Below, one piece after another: positions 36,185-58,635 of a DNA stretch of 64,000 nucleotides (its first letter is position 1; each line of letters starts with the position of its first letter). The translations under genes and the position numbers were made by a program. The notes beneath the pieces were generated by a model that was given only the letters and a program-made list of their open reading frames with translations, had not been told where the DNA came from and ran no database searches. The DNA comes from a virus: IMG/VR virus record IMGVR_UViG_3300025669_002431; one strand, written 5' to 3'.

Positions 36185-37128
36185 TAGTTTACCTTCCTAT
36201 TCAGAACCTTTAAGGCTTTCTTTATTGAGCCTAAAGGAACTGAGTTTGTTGCTGTGTCAATATTTAATGTGTATAATTTGTAAGGAAAATATCGAGTATA
36301 TTCTTTGATTTTATTCATCATAATACAACGATCCCAACCTAGTATTTCTCCAGCTAACCACATAGGACCACTGTTTATTCCAATGAAGTATTTACACTCT
36401 GCTATTTTATTCATCATGTCTATAATAGTTCCCCCTGATTCCCTCATGGTATTTCCATTCATCCATTTAGGAATAGGTTGGACACAATAATGTGGCAGCA
36501 TAGGAACATTCATATGAATTTCAAATGGATCATATCCCATCGCTTTAACATCATTCCATACTATTTCGGGACCACCATCCATTAAACTTTTTTTACTATA
36601 AGCAGTATTACCAATGAAATGAATGCCCACCATATTAGAATTTTTAACAGGTTTTATTTTAGGTCTCCAGTTACCCCAATCAACATCTAATCCAAATTCT
36701 AATTTCGCTACATTTTGAAACTTCTTCAGCTTAGAATTCATGGGCTGTTCTGGAAACTTTAAAACAAATATATAATCATATTCTTTAATATATGAACTAT
36801 CATATTTTTCTTTAAATGTATCTTTGAATACAGAAGGTCTATCGTGTTTTCCTTTTGTCTTATTTAAAATCACAATATCTTCGTGTAATCCTTTGACTTG
36901 GATCATGGGGTGACAACCTATATTGAACTCCCAATTAGGATATTTTTTCTTAAGTACTTCATATATCTGGAAGAACATTATGAAGTCGCCAAGCCCATGA
37001 TCGAAAACAAAGAGAGCTTTCCCTGATTTTTTCCTGTTAAGATAAGAACAGACAGTGGCTCTCTTTGAAACTATATTCTCTATTAGCATATTATTTCCAA
37101 ACGTCGGCGTCTTCCTCACTTGTTTCAT
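36184..37128 (-). CDS. putative glycosyltransferase (GT9/heptosyltransferase-like N-terminus)
   Basis: ALFVFDHGLGDFIMFFQIYEVLKKKYPNWEFNI resembles the GT9 signature. Weak. Confidence 0.35.
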   Translation of the reverse strand: MKQVRKTPTFGNNMLIENIVSKRATVCSYLNRKKSGKALFVFDHGLGDFIMFFQIYEVLKKKYPNWEFNIGCHPMIQVKGLHEDIVILNKTKGKHDRPSVFKDTFKEKYDSSYIKEYDYIFVLKFPEQPMNSKLKKFQNVAKLEFGLDVDWGNWRPKIKPVKNSNMVGIHFIGNTAYSKKSLMDGGPEIVWNDVKAMGYDPFEIHMNVPMLPHYCVQPIPKWMNGNTMRESGGTIIDMMNKIAECKYFIGINSGPMWLAGEILGWDRCIMMNKIKEYTRYFPYKLYTLNIDTATNSVPLGSIKKALKVLNRKVN

Positions 37129-39376
37129 ACTGTTCTATTATCTCAGTTCTAAGCACGTCCTCTACATCATTATCCCATGCTTTTCTAAATTCAGCATTTT
37201 CTCTGTAATATTTAATCGCTTCCTTCTGTCTAAACTTCTGAGTAGGATACGATTCTAATGTACACCAAGCGGCAGCTTTAATTCTTTTTGTTCTCTTTAG
37301 TAGTTCATAATTTGTCCAGAAGTTTGAGAAGCCTCTTTCGAAACTAACTATCATGGATATGTCAATGTTTGGAGAAAATAACTTATTCTTTACAGCCTTT
37401 CCTGTGAGCTTAACTCCATTGAATCCATACTCTCCTGCTACATCTCCAGTAGGCCTGAAGAAAAAAAGTTGTGTAGATGCGAATAGATTAGCATTACCTC
37501 CTGGAATATTATACGCTCCAAGAAATTTTAGTTTATTAAATCCTTTGAATTTACCAACCTGCATACTATCTCTAAGTTGATTCAGAGCGAACAAACATAT
37601 ATTATAATTTGCCATCTTATCAGAATATTTTTTAAGATATTTAGTAAGGGCACTTGCTTGTATACTTAATTGTTCTGTATTAGTTGTTACCTCAGCTTCA
37701 GTAGGAGTACTCGCTATACTATCCCATACTATAATGGATGGTACATCTAGTATATCTTTGTGTTCTTCCTTATATGCACATAACCCCTCAACGATTGAGA
37801 ATACCTTTTCGATTGTAATTCCATTTTGTGGATTTATCTCTGGATATTTAACTCCAAGATCTGTAAGTCTTTTTTTAGTAGTTGTATTTTCTGAATCTAA
37901 GTATACTGATATAAATTTTCCAGGCCATTTCCTTTGACCCGAAGATATAACCTTCGCAGCCAATGTAGAGTTATGAGTAACTATGAACTCGTCAGTTATA
38001 TATGACCCATTTGGATTATTAACTTCTATGCACTGAGCTTCTGATTTTTCAACAAACTTAACCGATTTTATACATTTCGTTATGGTTCTTTTTCTTATAT
38101 TTGATAATAACTTTGATTTTTCTTTTACTCTTACTGGGGGAAAACAATTTGGTAGGTTTATATCTAGTTGAAATGATTTAAAAATATTCCCATTATATTT
38201 TGTTTTTTTATTATATATTTTTATTCTTCCTCCCAATGATCTAATTATAAATGCTACGTCATCTATCAATCGTTTAGATATTGAATAAAAACACATTCTA
38301 TTTGTTTTTTCTATAGATCCATCAGTATCACATAACCCTTGTAAGATTGATAATCTATCATCAATTGAACTAAATTTATATGAATCTGGTATAAATTTAT
38401 CTTTAGAACTTTTTCCCAATAATCCTAATTCATTTAAAATAACTTTCATCTCATTGCGTAAAATATCTTTTTTGCCTTGACCTCTTCTATTCATTCTATT
38501 AAATATATATCCGTATTTTGAGCCATTAATTACCTCTAATTTTATATTATCTGGGAGGGTTTTTTCACAAATATTTATAATTTCTTTATATTTATCAGAT
38601 ACTGTAAGAGATATTTTATCATTTCGACTATACATAGATCCATCTCCCAAAAGGCACCCCAATAAATATGGGTCAATCGGTAAATTATTTTTATCAAAAT
38701 TAATAGCATTATTAACAGGTATGGTCCATTTTTTATCGCTAGTATGTTGGTTATTTATATCTTCAAAAATCTCTTCTAATCGTCTAACTTTAAATTCTGA
38801 TTTATAATCTTTTTTACATATCCAAAGATGGTCTAACGTGGATCTAGCTTTGGTTCCGTCGGTAAATTTTATTTCATATATATCCTTTTCCCCCTGTGGA
38901 GATACATTTGTAATATTACAAATTTCCCCTCTAGAATCAAATACATTATTTCCTATTTTCATTTCTCCCATAGTCTTCCAACCACTAGGTGTTAAAATTT
39001 TAGAATACAATGGTTGTGCTTTTCCACAACCAGGAGGCCCAACAAATTGTACTAATCCTGTCGAGACTCCTCCACCAAGTACAGTATCCAATAGATCTAT
39101 ACCAGTAGGAATAGTTGTCTTATTTTCTTTTGATTCAGTAAAGTCATATCCTTTTTTAAGGAAAGAAGAAAAGTCTTCAAATAAGTCTTTAGATTTTTCT
39201 AATTCACCTTCTGTCAGCTTGACATCCGAATATTTACTAGTTATTAATGTATCTTCTTCTATTGATGCTGCCGCTTCCGTTGGGACCTGAGGTAGCAAAG
39301 TTTTCTTTTTCTTTTTCTCCTGCACTGCAGGAATTGATTCTTCTTCAACAAGTTTATCCATTATCTTCCTTTCCAA
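37091..39376 (-). CDS. RecA/UvsX-family recombinase interrupted by a LAGLIDADG intein in the Walker A loop
   Basis: The extein reads LGGGVSTGLVQFVGPPGCGK-STLAAKVIS...VYLDSE, a RecA-like P-loop. The insert has LAGLIDADG motifs (LLGCLLGDGSM, LQGLCDTDGSIE) and ends THN|S. Confidence 0.7.
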   Translation of the reverse strand: MERKIMDKLVEEESIPAVQEKKKKKTLLPQVPTEAAASIEEDTLITSKYSDVKLTEGELEKSKDLFEDFSSFLKKGYDFTESKENKTTIPTGIDLLDTVLGGGVSTGLVQFVGPPGCGKAQPLYSKILTPSGWKTMGEMKIGNNVFDSRGEICNITNVSPQGEKDIYEIKFTDGTKARSTLDHLWICKKDYKSEFKVRRLEEIFEDINNQHTSDKKWTIPVNNAINFDKNNLPIDPYLLGCLLGDGSMYSRNDKISLTVSDKYKEIINICEKTLPDNIKLEVINGSKYGYIFNRMNRRGQGKKDILRNEMKVILNELGLLGKSSKDKFIPDSYKFSSIDDRLSILQGLCDTDGSIEKTNRMCFYSISKRLIDDVAFIIRSLGGRIKIYNKKTKYNGNIFKSFQLDINLPNCFPPVRVKEKSKLLSNIRKRTITKCIKSVKFVEKSEAQCIEVNNPNGSYITDEFIVTHNSTLAAKVISSGQRKWPGKFISVYLDSENTTTKKRLTDLGVKYPEINPQNGITIEKVFSIVEGLCAYKEEHKDILDVPSIIVWDSIASTPTEAEVTTNTEQLSIQASALTKYLKKYSDKMANYNICLFALNQLRDSMQVGKFKGFNKLKFLGAYNIPGGNANLFASTQLFFFRPTGDVAGEYGFNGVKLTGKAVKNKLFSPNIDISMIVSFERGFSNFWTNYELLKRTKRIKAAAWCTLESYPTQKFRQKEAIKYYRENAEFRKAWDNDVEDVLRTEIIEQYETSEEDADVWK
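37970..39019 (-). mobile_element. intein with LAGLIDADG homing endonuclease (in the RecA-like gene)
   Basis: About 350 aa with block A-like ILTPSGWKTM..., two LAGLIDADG motifs and C-terminal ...IVTHN followed by Ser. Confidence 0.6.
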
Positions 39377-39740
39377 TCATAGTCGTAGTCTTAGTCTTAT
39401 TTCTATCTAATTCTTCAATTATTTTGACAACCTCGCGAATGTCAACTTCATCACCTTCCTTCTCATCTCCCATAACTTTTCTTCTCACTTCGAACTCGCT
39501 CTTAAAAGAACCTTCGATTGCTCTGTTGACATCAAGTCTTACTTTTTGGAACTCTACTATTGTTTTTATTTTATTTTCTAGTAGATATCTTTTAGAGTAA
39601 TCTTTAGATTCAGGAAATATTGCTTCCATCTTACCATCTATTAGTTTAAGACGATCACGCATCGTGAATAGGTCTACTCTATTTAAAGATATACCATCTA
39701 TTATGTCAAATAGTTCTTTATTTTTTTCTTTCTTAGCCAT
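39354..39740 (-). CDS. hypothetical protein
   Basis: 128-aa ORF. Confidence 0.35.
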   Translation of the reverse strand: MAKKEKNKELFDIIDGISLNRVDLFTMRDRLKLIDGKMEAIFPESKDYSKRYLLENKIKTIVEFQKVRLDVNRAIEGSFKSEFEVRRKVMGDEKEGDEVDIREVVKIIEELDRNKTKTTTMIGKEDNG

Positions 39741-39920: not shown

Positions 39921-40598
39921 CTATATACTTTTTGGTTTTTTTTCTTCATCAGAATCTCCAACATTTTTTATACTATGTTCATCCTTTGCAGCATTATAAT
40001 ACGATTCAGCAAAAGCTGTACATGTTTCTTTTATTTCTTCAGATTGTTCTATTTTATCTGCATGAAAAGGAATGTCCAATTCTAATTTATTATTATCTGT
40101 TATATTTGAACTGTAATCAGAAGATGGATTCTTAATAGGATATATCCCTATACATTTAGTAGAATATTCTACAATTCTTCCATTTGGTTGAGTTGTCCAA
40201 TAATACACATCCCCCTTATAATTTATAGAGGTGTCTTCATTATTACTAGCAAATGATCTTGCTCTTATTGTTTCATTATACCAAGCAGATATTATATTAT
40301 AAATTGGCAATCCAGTTAATTCTAAATGCACTGAATATAATTCATTATCAATTACTCTAGCAGAATTTGATAAATCATTTTTATCAACCTCTATATATCC
40401 ACCGGGTAATATAAATGATAAATTAGTCGATGCAAGCATTCTCTCAGCGTCTGAGATTAATTTTATTTCTTTTGTATTATTTAAAACGCAATTTGGTAAC
40501 GTCCATCTGGTGAAAAAGAATCCAGTTATATATGGATCTACTGCATGATCACATCCACCAAACGGTCTATTTACTTTACCTTTTTTATCTTCTTCCAT
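39921..40598 (-). CDS. hypothetical protein
   Basis: 225-aa ORF. Confidence 0.4.
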   Translation of the reverse strand: MEEDKKGKVNRPFGGCDHAVDPYITGFFFTRWTLPNCVLNNTKEIKLISDAERMLASTNLSFILPGGYIEVDKNDLSNSARVIDNELYSVHLELTGLPIYNIISAWYNETIRARSFASNNEDTSINYKGDVYYWTTQPNGRIVEYSTKCIGIYPIKNPSSDYSSNITDNNKLELDIPFHADKIEQSEEIKETCTAFAESYYNAAKDEHSIKNVGDSDEEKKPKSI

Positions 40599-40710
40599 TT
40601 TTCTCTCCTATTATAACCAACACTACTTCCACTTCCTTTATTTCTCTGTAAACAACTAATAGCTAACGCAGACAAGCCGCGCTAGCTAATAGTCGTTTAT
40701 TTTAACTAGA

Positions 40711-40923
40711 TTAACTATGTGCTATAAAATCACCAACAATATCAGTTAGTTCTAAACTTGAGACATGAATGTCTGGTGTCATATATCCATCGTGGGTATA
40801 TGTAGCAGCATAAGTCTCTACTTCAGTAATATTGTTAAATGTATTTCCATAACAATCTTGCCATAAGCCATCGGCCCATGTTATATTTAATGCTAATCCT
40901 GTACTAGCAGCTATAATCATCAT
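40711..40923 (-). CDS. small secreted protein (paralog pair A)
   Basis: Signal-like N-terminus MMIIAASTGLALN. Shares ...NTFNNITEVETY... with the 46-aa ORF at 40978..41118. Confidence 0.4.
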   Translation of the reverse strand: MMIIAASTGLALNITWADGLWQDCYGNTFNNITEVETYAATYTHDGYMTPDIHVSSLELTDIVGDFIAHS

Positions 40924-40977: not shown

Positions 40978-41118
40978 TTACGCAGGTTCTGCTCTTGCTG
41001 TGAGATATTCTTGAACTTCACTAAGGTTATTGTATGTAGTTCCACCGTTTACATAAAACATACCATCAATAAAGTTAATTCCTACTTCATTTCCATTTCC
41101 GTCTACGAATAGTGCCAT
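40978..41118 (-). CDS. small protein (46 aa; paralog pair B)
   Basis: Not in the ORF track. MALFVDGNGNEVGINFIDGMFYVNGGTTYNNLSEVQEYLTARAEPA. Confidence 0.35.
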   Translation of the reverse strand: MALFVDGNGNEVGINFIDGMFYVNGGTTYNNLSEVQEYLTARAEPA

Positions 41119-41132
41119 GACACATCCTCCTT

Positions 41133-42029
41133 TTATTTCTTTCCTATTTTAGAACATTTCCAACCATTTTTATGGCTTTTCTGTCGACCGAATGCCACAT
41201 GATTCATTCCAACTACGTTTAAATTATTTTCTTCACAAAATTTAGATAAGTTATCTACAATATATATTTTTCCAGTTGGATCAATTATTTTATATTTATT
41301 TTTTGTTCCATATGTATTTCCTTTATTAATATCAGATATTTTGTTCCTTAACTCATCATTATTCCATGCAGATTTTATCTTGTTTTTGTGTTCTAATCTC
41401 TTTTCATCACTTCTATTTTTCCAAATTTCTGTCTGTATTTTGGATATCTTTTTCTTTACTTCAGGTCTATTTAGAGAATCAGTAATTTCTTTTATTCTTT
41501 TACTTCTATTTTCTTCAATAGACCAAAAATTCTTTAAACCTCTAGAAACTTTTTCTTTATATTCTTTGTTTTTATTTAACTCAGTAAAAATTTTACTATG
41601 GTTTTTTCTTCTCTCTTTTGACCATTTTTGATTTATTGGTGTCTCTCCACCATCTGTTAAATTTGTGAGAGGACCATTTCCTAAATCATATCTGCCTATA
41701 TTTTTTATTATATGTTTTTCTTCATTAAATGCATTTAATTTATTCATCTCAATTTTTAATTTAATTATAATAGGTTCAAGATCATACCTAAAAATCTTTC
41801 TAATTTTGTTAAGTTTTAATTGGTTTCTTTTAGAAAAACATCGACTTGCTTCAGATAGATGGGATTTATATCTCCGACCATGACCTGCGCCAACATAAAA
41901 TGGTTCATATAATAATCCAAATCCCAAATTAGGATAAACATATTTTCCAGGTTTTCGGGGATCTAGATAAATATATACATAATAATTATTTTGATTTTTT
42001 TTCTTTTTGTTTTTTGGAGTGGAGGGCAT
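41133..42029 (-). CDS. GIY-YIG homing endonuclease
   Basis: GIY-YIG core YYVYIYLDP...FYVGAGHGRRYKSH followed by Lys-rich NUMOD-like DNA-binding repeats. Confidence 0.78.
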   Translation of the reverse strand: MPSTPKNKKKKNQNNYYVYIYLDPRKPGKYVYPNLGFGLLYEPFYVGAGHGRRYKSHLSEASRCFSKRNQLKLNKIRKIFRYDLEPIIIKLKIEMNKLNAFNEEKHIIKNIGRYDLGNGPLTNLTDGGETPINQKWSKERRKNHSKIFTELNKNKEYKEKVSRGLKNFWSIEENRSKRIKEITDSLNRPEVKKKISKIQTEIWKNRSDEKRLEHKNKIKSAWNNDELRNKISDINKGNTYGTKNKYKIIDPTGKIYIVDNLSKFCEENNLNVVGMNHVAFGRQKSHKNGWKCSKIGKK

Positions 42030-43050
42030 AAATTAAATTTCCTGTTGCTACAGCCGCTAATGGGTCTTTTGCTCTTCTTATATCAGAGACATTATATGGG
42101 AATATATCTCTATAGTTTTCATCGAAAACTTTTGTAAAACATTCTATAAACCCATTGGGTAAAGATGTTCCACCCGATACAATGATCGGAATATCTTCTC
42201 CTATTTCGAGAGCATCAGAAGATTTTTCAAATTCTTTACAAAATGTTTTTAATATATATTCTATCATATCTTTATAGAAGAAAACCAGACACTCTAATGC
42301 TCGTTTCTCTGCTTTTTTCTTTGATATAATAGGATTATCTAAATCTAATTTACTCTCTTTTAATCTTGTAACTCTACTTACAGGAACATTAATAGAATCA
42401 GACACTTGTTTATCAATCCAGTCTCCTCCTCTCTTGATAGCAAATGCTAGACTCATAATTCCTCTGTAAGAAAACGCTACATTAATTAAACCACATCCAC
42501 AACTGATCCCTATTCCGCTAAAGTTCGTATCTGCACACTCTGAAAAAATTATCCCCATTCCTTCATTTAAAGGTTTAGCATCATATCCGATAGAATCTAA
42601 AACCTTTGAGAACACCTGTTCATGATACAGCACAGGAGGATTGTCAGCGTCTACTGTGTCTGCTGGCACTGAGTATACACAATAGCCTCTTTGTCCCTTA
42701 GGAGGCGTTTTGACTAGCTTCTTAGCCATCACAGTGAGTATATCTATAGCATCTATGTCCTTGCTGGAGATGACGCCTCCTTCCATAGGACGTCTTGGAG
42801 TAATACCAAATATCTGGGAAAATCTAAAACAATCTTCACCAATAATAAAGACTCTTTCCACATCGTCCTCATTACTAACTATGTAATCTAAATCTGTATT
42901 TTCTAATTCTTCTATTGCTATAACATCAGTATCAATCTCTGAGAACATATTTCTTACTGTATTTATAGTAATTTTACCTTCAGTTGCCTGACAGGCGGAA
43001 ACTTGATTCATTGTACCTAAATCATACCCATAATAATGTTTTATATCCAT
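41986..43050 (-). CDS. actin-fold ATPase (ParM/MreB/FtsA-like)
   Basis: ASKHA motifs: phosphate-1 YGYDLGTMNQVSA, phosphate-2 GIGISCGCGLINVAF, adenosine IIVSGGTSLPNGF. Confidence 0.6.
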   Translation of the reverse strand: MDIKHYYGYDLGTMNQVSACQATEGKITINTVRNMFSEIDTDVIAIEELENTDLDYIVSNEDDVERVFIIGEDCFRFSQIFGITPRRPMEGGVISSKDIDAIDILTVMAKKLVKTPPKGQRGYCVYSVPADTVDADNPPVLYHEQVFSKVLDSIGYDAKPLNEGMGIIFSECADTNFSGIGISCGCGLINVAFSYRGIMSLAFAIKRGGDWIDKQVSDSINVPVSRVTRLKESKLDLDNPIISKKKAEKRALECLVFFYKDMIEYILKTFCKEFEKSSDALEIGEDIPIIVSGGTSLPNGFIECFTKVFDENYRDIFPYNVSDIRRAKDPLAAVATGNLIYALHSKKQKEKKSK

Positions 43051-43052
43051 GC

Positions 43053-43418
43053 TTACCTTTCTAATTCTCCTAGTTTATCTAATTGTGATGCAATATCAAC
43101 AGTCTTTGTTCGTTTACTAACTTTGTTTGTACGTGAAGTAATATCTGATATATCTGGCTCAGGTATATACGTAGGACTAGAGCCCTTCTTTAATTTGTCC
43201 TCATTTTTTTCATTTCCTTTTCCAGTAGATGTGTATGTTACTGATGGATCTTTCATTATTCCTACTATTTCCATTAATCTATTATTTATTAATGTTAACT
43301 GATCCATTATATCGCCAGCGTCAAATGTACTAACAGATATAGGTGGGTGTTTATCTTTTTCTAAGATTCGCAACCTACTCTTTATGTGTCTTACGTCTTC
43401 TTGATGTCTTAGTGTCAT
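43053..43418 (-). CDS. hypothetical protein
   Basis: 121-aa ORF. Confidence 0.35.
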   Translation of the reverse strand: MTLRHQEDVRHIKSRLRILEKDKHPPISVSTFDAGDIMDQLTLINNRLMEIVGIMKDPSVTYTSTGKGNEKNEDKLKKGSSPTYIPEPDISDITSRTNKVSKRTKTVDIASQLDKLGELER

Positions 43419-43419
43419 T

Positions 43420-43926
43420 TTAAATATACTCTATGTTGACTTCTCTACACTTTAATAGTTCATCGTAAATATTTACCATATGGTGCTCTACAGTCATCCT
43501 ATATGACCTATCTACTCCATCTCTAACCCCATCTTCTACCAAATAATCATTATTTATTATTGTTTTAAAATAAATTTTGTCATATGACTCAATATGATGT
43601 TTGGCCATCTCTATCATAGCCAACGCTAATTCATCATCTCCACCACCATTTATTCTAGTATATGCTATTGAATCAATGATAGTTCTATCACATATAACAA
43701 TATCATAATTTGCTTCTAAAAATAATTCATGTTGTAGTTGTGAACAAAATATCCACATTTGACTTTTTGAGTTTCCATCTTTATTAATTTTAAATGGGGA
43801 GTGTCTAGCGTTCTCCATAAAAATACCTACAGATTTAGTAGGGTGTATCATTTTCATCTCATGTGCTTTTTCTAATACAGATGTGGTTTTCCCAACCGAA
43901 TGTGAACCCGAAAATGCTATACGCAT
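43420..43926 (-). CDS. P-loop NTPase / small kinase-like protein
   Basis: Walker A AFSGSHSVGKTT at the N-terminus and Walker B-like DIVICDRT. Family not assignable by eye. Confidence 0.45.
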   Translation of the reverse strand: MRIAFSGSHSVGKTTSVLEKAHEMKMIHPTKSVGIFMENARHSPFKINKDGNSKSQMWIFCSQLQHELFLEANYDIVICDRTIIDSIAYTRINGGGDDELALAMIEMAKHHIESYDKIYFKTIINNDYLVEDGVRDGVDRSYRMTVEHHMVNIYDELLKCREVNIEYI

Positions 43927-44735
43927 AAAATAATACCTTTCTTTTCTAAAAAATTCTCTAATGCTTGTTTTTCATATACTCCACTTTTCTTTAGATTTTC
44001 CTCAGCTGATAATATTTGTAAGTTATCTAAAGAATTTATAACTTTAGGATCATCTATTCCATTTTCAACAAAAGATTTTATTGGAATAATATGATCAATA
44101 TGATAATTGGTTGTATCTTCTTTCCAAAGATTATAATTTTTACACTTCTTTAAATGTTTTAGTAAATCTTGTCGAGAATAACCCAAAGTTTTTTCTGTAC
44201 TTCGAGACTTTCTTTTTCCTGTTGCCTTCGTGGTACAAAATAAAAGAGATTTACATAATATATGAATCCGTAGTTTATCTTCGACTTCTTCCCTATTTGG
44301 ATTCCACGATTTACTATTTTTACCGCTTGTTCTTTCTTTTCTACATTGTTTACACAAACTACCTTTTCCATTATTTCTTCTTTTGCTGATAAAATGAGAT
44401 AGAGTTATAGATGATATATTCCCACATCTACATCTATATTTCATTTTTGTTTTATTATTAATATATTCTTTTTCAAGGAGTTCACAACCCTTATCGAAAA
44501 AAATCTTTTTAATATCCTCATAATTAAACTTATGTAAATCTTTTCTATTTTTAGCAGAACAACTTCTACAATAAGGAGACCGTCGTAATGTATTCCAAGA
44601 ACTATTTTTTTCTTTTCCGCAAGAACAAATGCATTTTATTTTAGTATGCGGATTAACATAAATTTCTTCTAATAATTTGCATCCCTTATCCTCTAAATAT
44701 TTTCGTATATATTCTATTGTATATTTTTTATTCAT
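43917..44735 (-). CDS. HNH-type endonuclease with Cys-rich N-terminus (paralog family 2)
   Basis: YHIDHIIPIKSF...LDNLQILSAEEN. Multiple CxxC pairs. Paralog of 46199..47008. Confidence 0.6.
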   Translation of the reverse strand: MNKKYTIEYIRKYLEDKGCKLLEEIYVNPHTKIKCICSCGKEKNSSWNTLRRSPYCRSCSAKNRKDLHKFNYEDIKKIFFDKGCELLEKEYINNKTKMKYRCRCGNISSITLSHFISKRRNNGKGSLCKQCRKERTSGKNSKSWNPNREEVEDKLRIHILCKSLLFCTTKATGKRKSRSTEKTLGYSRQDLLKHLKKCKNYNLWKEDTTNYHIDHIIPIKSFVENGIDDPKVINSLDNLQILSAEENLKKSGVYEKQALENFLEKKGIILCV

Positions 44736-45479: not shown

Positions 45480-46208
45480 TTATAATAACTTCTTTTCCCA
45501 TTTATCTCTATCTTTTCTGATTTTCTTCATTGTGTCTTCTATTTTACGTTTACATAATTTAGGCTTATCTGTTTTATCGCATTTTGACATCTGAGATAAT
45601 AATGCTTCTTCTATTTCTTTTGATCTTTGTATTTTACAAATATATAAATCCTTACCACTATATTTCTGGCACTCACCATGTACATGCTTCCTATATAATT
45701 TTCTAGTTACTAATGCTATAATACCAATTACTGCTATAGAAGATACTAGTGCAGCAGTACCTTTAATATGTTTCCAATCCCCGTGAATTTCTTTTGCTCT
45801 TTTACTTATATCATTAACTTTTGCCATGACTAGATCCATTGTATCAACAAATTTTGTACCCATCCTAGGAATATCTCTTATCTTACCTTTAGAAGGACCA
45901 CTTAGAACATCTATCTGAGATTGCCTATCATCAATTCTACTCATTAACCCCTCTCTAGATGTCTCTGTTAATAATAGTTCTTGAATGTGTTCGGTAAAGG
46001 TATCAAATAAATTTTCACAGATGTTTAATCTATCTATCATTTCTTCTGTACTAACTGTATCATCTGTTACAATTTTATTTATGCTAATCTCATAAATTTC
46101 TTGAATGGATCCTGGCTCATCTAGTTCTTCTCCGACTAGAGCTTCCATAAGATCTCCTAGAGCGCGTTTAAATTCTACGCTCATCAAAAAACTTTCACTT
46201 ATGTACAT
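45480..46208 (-). CDS. hypothetical protein with C-terminal TM segment
   Basis: 242 aa. TM TAALVSSIAVIGIIALV near the C-terminus. Confidence 0.35.
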   Translation of the reverse strand: MYISESFLMSVEFKRALGDLMEALVGEELDEPGSIQEIYEISINKIVTDDTVSTEEMIDRLNICENLFDTFTEHIQELLLTETSREGLMSRIDDRQSQIDVLSGPSKGKIRDIPRMGTKFVDTMDLVMAKVNDISKRAKEIHGDWKHIKGTAALVSSIAVIGIIALVTRKLYRKHVHGECQKYSGKDLYICKIQRSKEIEEALLSQMSKCDKTDKPKLCKRKIEDTMKKIRKDRDKWEKKLL

Positions 46209-47008
46209 ATGATTTCCTCCTCGATATAATCTGTGGTGGTATTTTTTAAATATTTATTAAACAAAAGTTTATCGCATTTTGAACTCTTTTTCCAATTACT
46301 ATGACTTGGTAATATGCGTAAATTATCAAGGGCATTTATTATTTTAGGATCATATATTTTTTCATCTATAAATGATTTTATTGGAAATATATGATCTATA
46401 TGATAATTATAAGAGTTATTCTTCCAATTCTCAAATAATGGATCTCTTTTGAGTTTATTTAAAAAGTCACCTCTAGAATATCCAAGCATGTTTTCTGTTT
46501 TGCATGTTTTTTTATGACCTGTTGCTTTTAATGTACAATATATTAGAGACCTGCATGCTACGTCTACTTTTCTCCTTACTTCTATTTTTTGCCTATCTGG
46601 ATTCCAATTATAATGATTCTTTCCCGATCTCTTTTTTATAGCACATTTCATACATCTCTGACCTTTCTTAAAATCTGAAAATCTTATATTTGAAGTGTTT
46701 CCACAAGAACAGATGTAAATTAATGTAGATTTATCATTCCTGTAGTTATCTAATAATTCGCACCCATTTTCTTTAAAATACCCTTCAACATAATCCTGAG
46801 TATGTTTTTTATATTTATTAGTTTCTGCATAATTACATTTTTTACATTTATGTTTCTTTTTAAAATGAAGAAATTTTATAAATGATATATTTCCACAGGA
46901 ACACCTAAATTTTATCGGATATTTAGTACTTCTATAGGTATCAATTAGTTTACATTCATATTTTTTAAAATATTCTTCAACATATTTTTGATTATATTTT
47001 CTATTCAT
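46199..47008 (-). CDS. HNH-type endonuclease with Cys-rich N-terminus (paralog family 2)
   Basis: YHIDHIFPIKSF...LDNLRILPSHSN. Shares WNPNRE/WNPDRQ and YCT(L/T)KATG blocks with 43917..44735. Confidence 0.6.
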   Translation of the reverse strand: MNRKYNQKYVEEYFKKYECKLIDTYRSTKYPIKFRCSCGNISFIKFLHFKKKHKCKKCNYAETNKYKKHTQDYVEGYFKENGCELLDNYRNDKSTLIYICSCGNTSNIRFSDFKKGQRCMKCAIKKRSGKNHYNWNPDRQKIEVRRKVDVACRSLIYCTLKATGHKKTCKTENMLGYSRGDFLNKLKRDPLFENWKNNSYNYHIDHIFPIKSFIDEKIYDPKIINALDNLRILPSHSNWKKSSKCDKLLFNKYLKNTTTDYIEEEIICT

Positions 47009-55404: not shown

Positions 55405-58400
55405 CTATTTTTTAATTTCACAACTACCATTATCGCAGAATTTTAGCGTTTCTTTTGATTCTATCTCTTCTTCTTTAGTCATTTTTATCTTCGATAATTT
55501 TAAAGGTTTTAGGGTTGATATATATAATTCATATTTTTCTTTTGTAATTTCTTCATATGGCATTTGTTTATATGATTTCACATCAAGAGGTAAAAATGAT
55601 ACAGCTTTTATTTTGTCTTCATATACTTCTAACACATCTTTAATCGAATTAGATTCATTTTCGTTAAATGTTACAGTCTGTGATACACCATTATCAGACC
55701 AATAGTGTTGTATATCTGCGTGAAGAGCCATTTGTTCCCATATAGTAATATCTCTCTTGGATTTAAAGAAATTTTTAGTTCTTATTGGAAATTCAAAAAT
55801 CCACGAATTTTTTTTATAATAAGACTGCTCTTTTTTATATCCGGCAATTTCTAGTGGTTTAATAAAAGGAGAGTTTTTTTGAAATTCTATTCTTCGAATA
55901 TAATATTCTGAGTGTGGAAAATGAATACCCGGATTACTTCCTGGTAATAATGATACAGTATTATGACTTTTTATACCTCCGGAATAATACCAATGATCTT
56001 TATCGACTTCTAAATCATACGTTTCTTCATACCCTTCTAATTCATGTACACTTACTACTTTACCTAAAATTAAAACATTTTGAGATTCAGTCAGACACTT
56101 AAATGATATATCATGTGGTGGATTTCGCATGTCATTTATTTTTATTAATTTATTGGATGTTTTTAATAATACATGGAGAGAATTAATATCTGTGTGGGAA
56201 TTTAATGTTAAATTCCATATATGTTTAATTTCTTGTTTGTTCTCCCCTTCTGTATTCAAAGATCTTCCAAAACATAATCCAACAGAAAATCCAACTTCTT
56301 GTATATTTTTTGCAAAATTATCATAGGCGGTTGAAATACATATTCCCACATCGCCGTCACGAACAAATACACAACCATCCGAATCAATTAATCCCGAAAT
56401 AAATGCTAAAATATTTTCTTTAGATGATTCTCTTACAATTCTTGGAATTACCGATATATTGCCCTGTTCATCATATTTAGTTATTCCATTAATATTCCAA
56501 AAGTCCCAAAGATGCCGAGACCCAATTTCAAGCACAAACGCGTTTCTATCTTGACTTGCAGGTTTTATATTAGAGTCTAATCCAAATAAATCATATATTA
56601 TTTTTTTTGCTTTTTCCAGATTATATTTATTCTCATCTATAAATCTAGTTCTAAATTTATGTCTACTCAAACAACCGTCTCCATATAAATATCCTATAAT
56701 CCAAGCAAGATCATTATTCATATATTCAGGTTGAGTTATAATATTTCCACGAGCACCAATAAAAGTATCTGGTATTGCTGAATGGGATAGTTTTGAACAA
56801 ATATTTTTTCTATAAGAATTCATACTAATATGAATAATATCGCCAGCTCGAACATCATTGGCACATATCCATTTGTTGACGTCTATTCTCTTATATCCTC
56901 CTTTTTCACTACTAGCATTCATATGTTCACTAACAAACACCATATGATTCGGGGTGCATTCAAAATCTAAATTGTAGTTCATTTTAATTTTAATTATTTT
57001 AGAAGTACTATTTCTATATGTTCTTAATATTTTATTTTTACTATTTTTCTGGTATACATAACTATCACTGTGATCGTTGTTCCACTCCAAATCTTCAGGA
57101 TGTTCTTCTAATAATTCATCTAGAGATAAAATCCCTCTATCTGTCGAAGTTAACGATCTACCCGGTCTACAACCACTCGGTTTTGTCGTAGTTACTTTTA
57201 TACTTTTCGGTACACATAACCACCTAGAATATAATTTATCCAGTTTTCTAATATTATTATATCCAGAATCACAAAACTCATTAAGAAACCTACGTCTACC
57301 AAATTTATAAATAGCATCTGTTATTCCTGACATAGATAACCCAATTCTTCTATTTCTAAGCATAACTTGATTTGTGCGTTCATCATGAGATGGTACTAAT
57401 GTAACACTTTTAGCTAAAAGATAAGCATATTTAAGAGTTTCTAAAAATTCTTCTTCGTTTTCATGATTAGCTGGAAATGTTTCACACAATAAACACATTT
57501 CATATTTTGATAGTGACATTTCAGCACAGGGATTTAATCCACAAACTCCCTCATCTTCCCATTTCTCTCCATCTTTTATCCTCCCATACTTTCTCATATT
57601 ATCTAAATACACTATTCCTGGTTCACCGTTATTAATAATGTGCTTGGTTAATTGTGTATAATCTGCACCAACTTCAGCAAATACTGAATTGTTTGAATTC
57701 CATCTCCAATCCTTTAATTCCTTTTCATATTTCTCAGGATTTTTCATATTCAAAAAATCAATATCATCATATTCTCCTATTGCTATTTCACTAGACCTTC
57801 TTTGTCCACCGCTTACTACACATTTCCCAACTATATTGAAAATATCAACTATATTTACAGATGTAATATATTTATCTACACATTTATTAAGAACCAGTTT
57901 TATCTCTTCTATACATAATTTTAATGGACCTGGTCCGGGAGCAATGCCTCCAAATGTTTTTATAAAACTTCCGTTAGGTCTTATTTTACTAAAATCAAAT
58001 TCTCTGGGCATTTTTGATTTATGAACATAAGAGTTTAATACTACTTCCACAGCATCTCTCCAACCTTCTCTACTATCATCTATAGTAAAAACATAATCTC
58101 CAACCTTAGGTTCTTGAATTTTAACTTTTCCTGCCCCTTTTAGATCGAATCCGCACCCTACCCCCAATAAAGCAACGTCCATTAACCAACAAAAAGGTCC
58201 ACTAAAATCATAATGTAGATCTTCAGTGGAACAAAATCCACAATTTAATAAAACAGCTACTCCTTTTTTCCAAACAACATCTTCTCCAAGGGTCCACAAC
58301 ATTCTCCCTGGAGGAAGAAATTTAAAATTCCACATCAACTCAAACATTTTTTGAGCAGATTTCTGTGCTTTATGTGCATTCCAATACAATCTTAAATTTT

Positions 58401-58635
58401 TACAATGATTTAGTTGAATTGTATAACATCCTTCCACTACTCGTTTGAGAGTCTCCCAAAATTCTTCATATCTATCTTCTTTTTCAATATATCGACTATA
58501 CGTTCTTTTATATGTAATAGCTCCAACTGGTCCCCAATTAGGTTGCTCGTTTGTATATTGATCTAAAAAATTCTCTGTCAAATTAAACTTTTCCCTGATT
58601 GGAAAAACCCAATCACTCATGTCAACTTTTGTCAT
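55405..58635 (-). CDS. nrdJ: class II (adenosylcobalamin-type, monomeric RTPR-like) ribonucleotide reductase interrupted by a LAGLIDADG intein
   Basis: Active-site GLNPCAEMSL...CLLCETF (N-x-C-x-E). C-terminal redox pair FCDNGSC (C-x4-C). The extein is about 700 aa. The insert has block B ECTPNHMVFV, LAGLIDADG motifs (IGYLYGDGCL, ISGLIDSDGCV) and ends SHN|T. Confidence 0.7.
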   Translation of the reverse strand: MTKVDMSDWVFPIREKFNLTENFLDQYTNEQPNWGPVGAITYKRTYSRYIEKEDRYEEFWETLKRVVEGCYTIQLNHCKNLRLYWNAHKAQKSAQKMFELMWNFKFLPPGRMLWTLGEDVVWKKGVAVLLNCGFCSTEDLHYDFSGPFCWLMDVALLGVGCGFDLKGAGKVKIQEPKVGDYVFTIDDSREGWRDAVEVVLNSYVHKSKMPREFDFSKIRPNGSFIKTFGGIAPGPGPLKLCIEEIKLVLNKCVDKYITSVNIVDIFNIVGKCVVSGGQRRSSEIAIGEYDDIDFLNMKNPEKYEKELKDWRWNSNNSVFAEVGADYTQLTKHIINNGEPGIVYLDNMRKYGRIKDGEKWEDEGVCGLNPCAEMSLSKYEMCLLCETFPANHENEEEFLETLKYAYLLAKSVTLVPSHDERTNQVMLRNRRIGLSMSGITDAIYKFGRRRFLNEFCDSGYNNIRKLDKLYSRWLCVPKSIKVTTTKPSGCRPGRSLTSTDRGILSLDELLEEHPEDLEWNNDHSDSYVYQKNSKNKILRTYRNSTSKIIKIKMNYNLDFECTPNHMVFVSEHMNASSEKGGYKRIDVNKWICANDVRAGDIIHISMNSYRKNICSKLSHSAIPDTFIGARGNIITQPEYMNNDLAWIIGYLYGDGCLSRHKFRTRFIDENKYNLEKAKKIIYDLFGLDSNIKPASQDRNAFVLEIGSRHLWDFWNINGITKYDEQGNISVIPRIVRESSKENILAFISGLIDSDGCVFVRDGDVGICISTAYDNFAKNIQEVGFSVGLCFGRSLNTEGENKQEIKHIWNLTLNSHTDINSLHVLLKTSNKLIKINDMRNPPHDISFKCLTESQNVLILGKVVSVHELEGYEETYDLEVDKDHWYYSGGIKSHNTVSLLPGSNPGIHFPHSEYYIRRIEFQKNSPFIKPLEIAGYKKEQSYYKKNSWIFEFPIRTKNFFKSKRDITIWEQMALHADIQHYWSDNGVSQTVTFNENESNSIKDVLEVYEDKIKAVSFLPLDVKSYKQMPYEEITKEKYELYISTLKPLKLSKIKMTKEEEIESKETLKFCDNGSCEIKK
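55960..57156 (-). mobile_element. intein with LAGLIDADG homing endonuclease (in the RNR gene)
   Basis: About 399 aa, SLTSTDRGIL... to ...YYSGGIKSHN. Blocks A, B, C/E, F and G are recognisable. Confidence 0.6.

Follow-up and report, generated by a model that had tools for sequence, protein, structure and literature searches.

The window analysed here is the whole of a 64,000-nucleotide (nt) stretch of viral DNA, IMG/VR record IMGVR_UViG_3300025669_002431. At 41986–43050 on its minus strand lies an open reading frame (ORF) for a protein of 354 amino acids (aa) which, by all the sequence tests run, is a genuine actin-superfamily protein of the volactin type. Immediately upstream lies a small ORF whose C-terminal tail recurs beside volactin genes in other lineages. 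The actin ORF had been picked out beforehand from the letters alone as an ATPase carrying the three signature motifs of the ASKHA superfamily (hereafter the original prediction); its coordinates proved exact and all three motifs are found in the translation. The two genes and their motifs are as follows.

41986–43050, minus strand: Volactin-family actin homologue, 354 aa, ATG start
43006–43029, minus strand: phosphate-1 motif, residues 8–15, GYDLGTMN (within YGYDLGTMN), with D10, G12 and T13
42481–42522, minus strand: phosphate-2 motif, residues 177–190, FSGIGISCGCGLIN, with G179, S183, G185, G187 and N190
42148–42192, minus strand: adenosine-binding motif, residues 287–301, IPIIVSGGTSLPNGF, with G293, G294, T295 and F301
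43053–43418, minus strand: candidate adaptor or partner, 121 aa, directly upstream of the actin gene on the same strand with a 2-nt gap
43056–43181, minus strand: C-terminal tail of the partner, residues 80–121, consisting of motif A, TYIPE, followed by the amphipathic motif B, VDIASQLDKLGE

The protein matches the Pfam family PF25216 (Volactin) with 209.3 bits and an E-value of 1.3e-61, residues 7–342 aligning to positions 3–321 of the 321-position profile. Since the gathering cut-off of this family is 35 bits, the likeness in the motifs is far beyond what chance would give. Orthologues from Haloferax (H. gibbonsii, H. prahovense and H. denitrificans) share 35% identity over 336 aa (E 4e-74). 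The MreB, ParM and Hsp70 profiles of Pfam did not match the window protein, MreB_Mbl (PF06723) being absent from its matches at E-values up to 1, and the FtsA profile gave a sub-threshold echo (E 0.0027). The family profile reached an E-value of 0.06 at best against the MreB sequences of the PDB. Judged by these profile comparisons, the protein is not an MreB. PHROGs contained no family for it. The identical protein occurs on six further public metagenome contigs, the longest of 80 kb.

The AlphaFold2 model of the actin has a mean pLDDT (predicted local distance difference test) of 92.5 and a pTM (predicted template modelling score) of 0.91, and its top structural matches are filament-forming actins. 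A single-sequence search returned no close solved structure; profile comparison puts MamK (E 7e-8) and BeeR (E 3e-4) nearest among the solved proteins. A fold search of BFVD gave Hsp70 homologues as its sole matches. Neither the Hsp70, the sugar-kinase nor the Ppx/GppA branch of ASKHA supplied the best structural or profile match, and the actin fold is present together with its phosphate-1, phosphate-2 and adenosine motifs. The original prediction had likened the protein to ParM, MreB and FtsA rather than to sugar kinases, and would have given way to a structural placement with Ppx/GppA, hexokinase or hydantoinase. The nearest structures are instead filament-forming actins, so its actin side holds, with MamK and BeeR as neighbours; the specific family is a different one, volactin, the MreB and ParM profiles being unmatched.

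Conservation was judged on 154 family members (82 viral, 33 haloarchaeal and 39 planctomycete relatives). D10, G12 and T13 of the phosphate-1 motif are invariant across all of them, as are G293, G294, T295 and F301 of the adenosine motif. In the phosphate-2 motif, quoted in the translation as FSGIGISCGCGLINV, G179, S183, G185, G187 and N190 are invariant or nearly so. The window protein keeps 21 of the 21 family-invariant residues, including E163, the GGDWID motif and the phosphate-2 Ser. This Ser183 is family-specific, and the bona fide volactin has a Ser there too; actin and MreB carry an Asp at the same place.

A word-indexed search returned more than 250 homologues, all of them PF25216, and when 1.84 billion representatives were searched exhaustively with a profile, 488 clusters scored E ≤ 1e-30. 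Relatives are carried on at least 330 IMG/VR viral stretches, many of them on contigs of 200–618 kb, the viral status having been checked through tail and baseplate matches in a few loci; two GenBank ‘uncultured phage’ genomes (485 and 595 kb) also encode them. The nearest relatives of the window actin are found on IMG/VR viral contigs of 223–248 kb and on an NCBI contig of 335 kb. Most cellular members are from Halobacteria, where the bona fide volactins belong, or from Planctomycetota; a few are in other bins. One contig from a Thermoplasmatales bin (L086, DAOVGR010000028.1) has exactly the gene order of the viral loci described below as Group 2 and a GC (guanine plus cytosine) content of 0.27, and is therefore probably a phage contig mis-binned into an archaeal metagenome-assembled genome. 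Listed beside it is a member binned as Patescibacteria (L162).

The order of genes around the actin was compared across 166 loci by de novo ORF calling, seeded on the actin ORF, and clustering. Direct tblastn of the proteins neighbouring the window gene against the 165 related loci found almost nothing, because the neighbours evolve too fast. The viral loci fall into three synteny groups. In Group 1, to which the window belongs, the order is the same in eight of eight genomes: an ORF of 113–143 aa in the partner position, the actin, sometimes a tiny Zn-ribbon ORF, a protein of 126–152 aa here called V, and RecA. Genes for ribonucleotide reductase (RNR), LigD_N and PDDEXK often lie upstream of this block. 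The Group 2 loci have low GC and contigs of 120–270 kb, and inspection by eye alone suggests a NUDIX hydrolase and glycosyltransferases as neighbours of the pair; an assignment of these neighbours as head or tail genes was rejected on the same inspection. Group 3 (GC 0.47–0.66), to which LR745208.1 belongs, has the most members, about 56 of 80 loci; there the pair adjoins a protein of 1,500 aa that contains a tail-sheath domain (phrog_2839, E 7e-31). In a neighbour-joining tree, which is midpoint-rooted, has no support values and is crude, Groups 1 and 2 join in a deep, exclusively viral, low-GC clade and Group 3 forms a second viral clade, while Halobacteria and Planctomycetota form separate, shallower ones.

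In every lineage, the gene directly upstream of the actin lies on the same strand; its product varies in the N-terminal part and has a C-terminal tail that is similar throughout. Searches with the 121-aa window partner, as a single sequence or as a five-sequence profile, found nothing beyond its own small group; it has no Pfam domain and no PHROG family, and no transmembrane segment or hydrophobic stretch was seen in its sequence. Its AlphaFold2 model is of low confidence (pLDDT 63.5, pTM 0.21) and suggests two N-terminal helices, a disordered linker at residues 60–79 and C-terminal helices. Within the tail, I85 and P86 are invariant in Group 1. Of 77 viral upstream ORFs, 35 contain the pattern [FY][IL]P[SDENP], where 3.7 would be expected, an enrichment of about 9-fold, and in 27 of the 35 it lies 34–56 residues from the C-terminus. 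The tail consensus runs acidic-pFIPs, about 20 residues, then gVDDAxxxLxxLr, for which the window has SSPTYIPEPDISDITSRTNKVSKRTKTVDIASQLDKLGELER.

Among the 16,586 six-frame ORFs of all loci, a hidden Markov model (HMM) built from the viral tails alone picks out the 121-aa window ORF (E 0.0098), and its cellular matches are almost exclusively the ORF directly upstream of volactin (4.8e-5 at L139, 7.7e-5 at L089, and many weaker). With an HMM of planctomycete tails, 10 of the 12 haloarchaeal matches are the ORF at position –1 (best E 0.006), although such ORFs make up only about 1% of the decoys. In held-out loci, including that of the published huge phage LR745208.1, the upstream ORFs are the sole tail-HMM matches. 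The tail thus occurs upstream of volactin genes in three phage lineages, in Planctomycetota and in Halobacteria; homology of the partners across these lineages is suggested by the enrichment, and not by strong individual E-values.

Among the cellular members, the haloarchaeal partner carries DUF7139 and is HVO_2016, a CdpA-like protein with four transmembrane segments that adjoins volactin and is a paralogue of a known cytoskeleton anchor (PMC12126565); the same study found volactin enriched in a CdpA pull-down (p = 0.06). We regard this protein as a candidate membrane tip-anchor of volactin filaments. The motif B helix (VDDAVxGLRxLqGG), which the phage and planctomycete partners also have, occurs in it once or twice. 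At the Halobacteria loci L115, L120 and L139, the upstream ORF ends 110–190 nt before the volactin gene. Other cellular partners are long coiled coils. A natural fusion of a planctomycete-type partner to an actin domain exists (P0144); the idea that N-terminally extended members in general are partner–actin fusions was rejected, as it held for this one of 15. Two further proteins, P0126 (729 aa) and P0134 (750 aa), are tandem double actins in which the first Volactin domain is degenerate and the second intact.

Around the pair, the window contains the following genes.

37091–39376, minus strand: RecA-type recombinase with a LAGLIDADG intein (PF00154, PF14528), at the downstream end of the block
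39354–39740, minus strand: V protein, 128 aa, function unassigned, located in Group 1 without exception between the actin and RecA genes
41133–42029, minus strand: GIY-YIG homing-endonuclease-like gene (PF22945, E 4.7e-11), sharing 44 nt with the 3′ end of the actin gene
43420–43926, minus strand: P-loop NTPase of 168 aa (AAA_28, thymidylate-kinase-like; PF13521, E 1.6e-9; phrog_2107, E 4e-14), upstream of the partner

The RecA found downstream of the actin in the eight Group 1 genomes has 402–495 aa. The V protein matches its counterpart in L004 at an E-value of 3e-12 and shows 48% mean column identity in a five-genome alignment; it has no Pfam or PHROG match. The AAA_28 gene is conserved in some relatives only; in the P0002 contig it directly precedes the partner, and in L006 it lies two genes upstream. 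The original prediction had set the actin between a GIY-YIG gene and unknowns, which is correct in that the remaining neighbours are unannotated ORFs, and had called this an accessory region. That part does not survive the comparison: the actin belongs to the block of partner, actin, V and RecA seen throughout Group 1, and the GIY-YIG gene is a mobile insertion. It is not at the window's position in seven of the eight relatives, and in L166 a homologous gene lies on the opposite side, between the partner and the actin. We read the GIY-YIG genes as independent homing-endonuclease insertions beside a conserved target, and hence as lying outside the actin system.

The strongest terminator-like hairpin of the region (40660–40688, minus strand; 12 pairs, six of them G–C, followed by a T-rich tail) lies just past the GIY-YIG gene and two small paralogous ORFs (40978–41118 and 40711–40923), which suggests that the inserted block ends there. 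Between that block and the V gene is a 225-aa ORF (39921–40598, minus strand) with weak PHROG matches to ‘virion structural protein’ (E 4.5e-5 and 5e-4). Two paralogous Cys-rich ORFs of 269 and 272 aa (43917–44735 and 46199–47008, minus strand; cluster Z) lie 1.5 kb apart, flanking a GT2 glycosyltransferase and a 242-aa ORF; they have no Pfam match, their C-termini look HNH-like by eye, and they may be mobile nucleases. A promoter scan was uninformative in this AT-rich DNA, with 81 sites against 67 expected.

All substantial ORFs of the window are on the minus strand, the GC content is about 0.30–0.36, and 10 tRNA genes are scattered over its length. The genes that could be annotated (NAD-ligase, RNR, two RNA ligases, an exonuclease, dCMP deaminase and NUDIX) fit the nucleotide and DNA metabolism usual in phages; homing endonucleases and the intein-bearing RecA lie among them. 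When a 20-kb piece of the window was compared with GenBank phages by megablast, no close DNA relative turned up. The relative L007, which shares the window's homing-endonuclease family, has baseplate-hub/tail-lysozyme, baseplate-assembly and tail-fibre-like genes within 7 kb. To judge from gene content, the source is a large tailed (jumbo-like) phage, and the bacterial types of its RecA and NAD-ligase point to a bacterial host.

Elsewhere in the window, a 914-aa ORF (7123–9867, minus strand) resembles the Major Vault Protein (MVP_shoulder, PF11978, E 7.7e-28 over the full profile; Vault_3, E 4e-10). It has no PHROG family and lies in the sole GC-rich stretch of the window (0.51 versus about 0.33). 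Such a gene is unusual in a phage and is possibly a recent acquisition. The 1076-aa RNR (55405–58635, minus strand) matches its PHROG profile in two stretches, the best of which covers only residues 22–488, and may also carry an insertion; relatives carry inteins in RNR/NrdD.

Inteins are also frequent in the actin family itself. They were found, with lengths of 128–448 aa and junctions of the form Cys...His-Asn|Cys/Ser, in 18 of 147 Volactin-family representatives (P0128, P0131, P0133, P0135–P0139, P0142, P0146, P0149, P0157, P0181, P0206, P0213, P0222, P0250 and P0267), four of them being confirmed by an Intein_splicing domain plus LAGLIDADG or HNH. They occupy at least five distinct sites, all in the phosphate-2 loop (16 of the 147) or the GGDWID motif. 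The window actin gene itself has no intein. Important genes are the usual targets of inteins and homing endonucleases in conserved motifs. The presence of the family on so many viral contigs, and the targeting of its most conserved motifs by inteins and free-standing homing endonucleases, are signs of functional constraint. The searchable literature yielded no account of inteins occurring naturally in a protein with an actin fold.

What the analysis shows is the family and fold of the protein, the conservation of its nucleotide-binding residues and of the synteny, and the shared tail motif. On this basis we think it probable, if not strongly so, that the phage volactin and its upstream partner form a filament-plus-adaptor system that organises phage DNA replication and recombination or virion assembly. 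The actin would bind ATP and polymerise into dynamic filaments in the infected cell. The tail of the partner, with its YIP motif and amphipathic helix, would dock onto the filament, as the C-termini of ParR and AlpA do on ParM and AlpC, and the variable N-terminal part would tether the filament to some structure of the phage or the host. In Group 1, the filament would position phage replication and recombination or virion assembly, which would be its most likely use since the pair sits in the replication/recombination block. Volactin itself, followed as VolA-msfGFP in H. volcanii, forms dynamically unstable filaments that span the cytoplasm with their tips at the membrane (PMC10869688). AlpA, encoded upstream of AlpC and co-transcribed with it, is needed with it for efficient phage DNA replication (PMC4446434).

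Several observations weigh against this interpretation. Polymerisation of the viral members, binding of the partner tail to the filament and the cargo or purpose of the system are predictions from sequence and analogy. The Ser that replaces the canonical Asp in the phosphate-2 motif may give kinetics different from those of classical actins. The tail match of the window partner is weak on its own (E about 0.01), its significance coming from the enrichment statistics, the structural model of the partner is of low confidence, and 13 of the 14 other N-terminally extended members are unlike partner fusions, the remaining one, P0259, giving a weak 7-bit match. The gene context is not the same in all phage lineages: Group 1 has replication genes, Group 2 glycosyltransferases and NUDIX, and Group 3 tail-sheath and structural genes. 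The proximity to RecA may for this reason be mere gene order. Pfam searches detected no DNA-binding domain near the cassette. The original prediction had suggested looking for a centromere-like repeat beside the gene; none was found between 36 and 48 kb, where there are only two-copy, 70–90% identical matches, and the partner gene abuts the gene upstream of it, leaving no intergenic site.

The varying context also speaks for a different target, since it fits a general host-directed function better than a tie to one phage process. The filament might act on the host cell, changing its shape, blocking its division or stiffening it so as to enlarge or stabilise a virus factory. It would then resemble volactin, with its part in the rod-to-disk transitions of Haloferax, more than a carrier of phage cargo. 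The sole experimentally studied member of the family controls the shape of the cell and stretches across it between the membranes on either side (PMC10869688), and the cellular partners are a membrane protein (DUF7139/CdpA-like; PMC12126565) or long coiled coils. The phage partner, however, has no transmembrane segment and is modelled as two helices and a linker, no use of volactin is known from the bacterial hosts of these phages, and the Group 1 gene is embedded among replication and recombination genes in all eight genomes. On balance we consider a host-directed role unlikely, though worth keeping in view.

A stricter analogy would make the pair a ParMRC or AlpACS machine, in which the 121-aa protein is a DNA-binding adaptor on centromere-like sites and the filament pushes or pulls genomes, as would suit a plasmid-prophage lifestyle or the positioning of replicating DNA. 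The order of small adaptor followed by actin is that of alpAC (PMC4446434). The cassette adjoins RecA, and the predicted partner layout of N-terminal helices, disordered linker and C-terminal helix resembles that of ParR. Such a machine seems to us distinctly improbable. Hardly any weight is left for a non-polymerising actin-fold ATPase, an Hsp70-like chaperone or FtsA/PilM-like scaffold working singly or in small oligomers, whether in virion morphogenesis or elsewhere.

Returning to the filament-plus-adaptor reading, phage cytoskeletons are known mainly from the PhuZ and TubZ tubulins and one prophage actin, AlpC, and a 2020 review of jumbo-phage cell biology covers tubulins only. Volactin has so far been described only as a haloarchaeal cell-shape protein; here it is found to be widespread in tailed phages, including those with genomes of 200–600 kb. 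In the searchable literature there is no paper tying volactin to phages, the sole co-occurrence of both words being in an unrelated Haloferax paper. A phage-encoded actin as such is already known from AlpC; what is new is how widely the family occurs in viruses, the conserved partner with its tail, and the number of inteins that the family carries. More tentatively, and as a possibility we rate well short of even, the volactin actin and its tail-bearing partner could be an ancient, mainly viral two-gene cytoskeletal module, core to several large tailed-phage lineages and an actin counterpart of the PhuZ tubulin spindle in organising replication or assembly within infected cells, with the haloarchaeal and planctomycete homologues as offshoots or exchange partners. 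The partner tail would then be the long-sought volactin-binding element, which would explain tip-anchoring by HVO_2016 in Haloferax.

The known systems can be set beside the phage pair as follows. PhuZ and TubZ are, like the window gene, cytoskeletal NTPases of large phages, and the original prediction had drawn a functional analogy to PhuZ. They have the unrelated tubulin/FtsZ fold, and the function of PhuZ has been demonstrated experimentally, whereas that of the window gene is read from sequence; no chimallin or tubulin was seen among the window ORFs scanned. The filament-forming prokaryotic actins BeeR (of Verrucomicrobiota), MamK, MreB and crenactin share only 15–18% identity with the window protein, MreB_Mbl is unmatched, and the N-terminal disordered extension of BeeR is not present here.

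Closer in arrangement is the AlpC/AlpA/alpS system of the Corynebacterium glutamicum prophage CGP3 (PMC4446434, PMC5539076), which also combines a phage actin-like ATPase, linked to phage DNA replication, with a small adaptor encoded directly upstream in the same orientation. AlpC appears to belong to a different actin family, neither a DNA-binding domain nor alpS-like repeats were detected in the window, and CGP3 is a temperate actinobacterial prophage, in contrast to the jumbo-phage-like genomes studied here. Type II plasmid partition by ParMRC likewise pairs an actin-fold NTPase with a small adaptor whose C-terminal peptide binds the filament, as we propose for the phage tail. The small adaptor beside the actin is found here too, as the 121-aa ORF 2 nt upstream and its equivalents in all eight genomes. 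Because the centromere feature was looked for and not found, we propose that the phage pair works like the ParM and AlpC cassettes without being a member of them.

Closest among the known systems is volactin of Haloferax volcanii (VolA, HVO_2015). It belongs to the same family, PF25216, has all the invariant residues including the phosphate-2 Ser and GGDWID, and has an upstream, co-oriented partner whose C-terminal tail appears related; that such a partner marks the family is our own proposal from synteny, not an established criterion. The window gene, by contrast, comes from a tailed phage and from the deep, exclusively viral low-GC clade, and its partner is a soluble protein of 121 aa, compared with the CdpA-like protein of about 300 aa with four transmembrane segments; it is unlikely that the rod-to-disk cell-shape role of volactin has been carried over to the phage unchanged. 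HVO_2016, the CdpA-like upstream neighbour of volactin in haloarchaea (PMC12126565), combines an anchor domain with a disordered linker and, at the C-terminal side, a small element. The window partner has the linker and tail with motif B and lacks the four-segment DUF7139 domain. The likeness is confined to the short tail and is statistical, with no strong pairwise E-value. In its layout, the phage pair is the same as the CdpA-like protein and volactin in Haloferax, AlpA and AlpC in CGP3, and ParR and ParM on plasmids.

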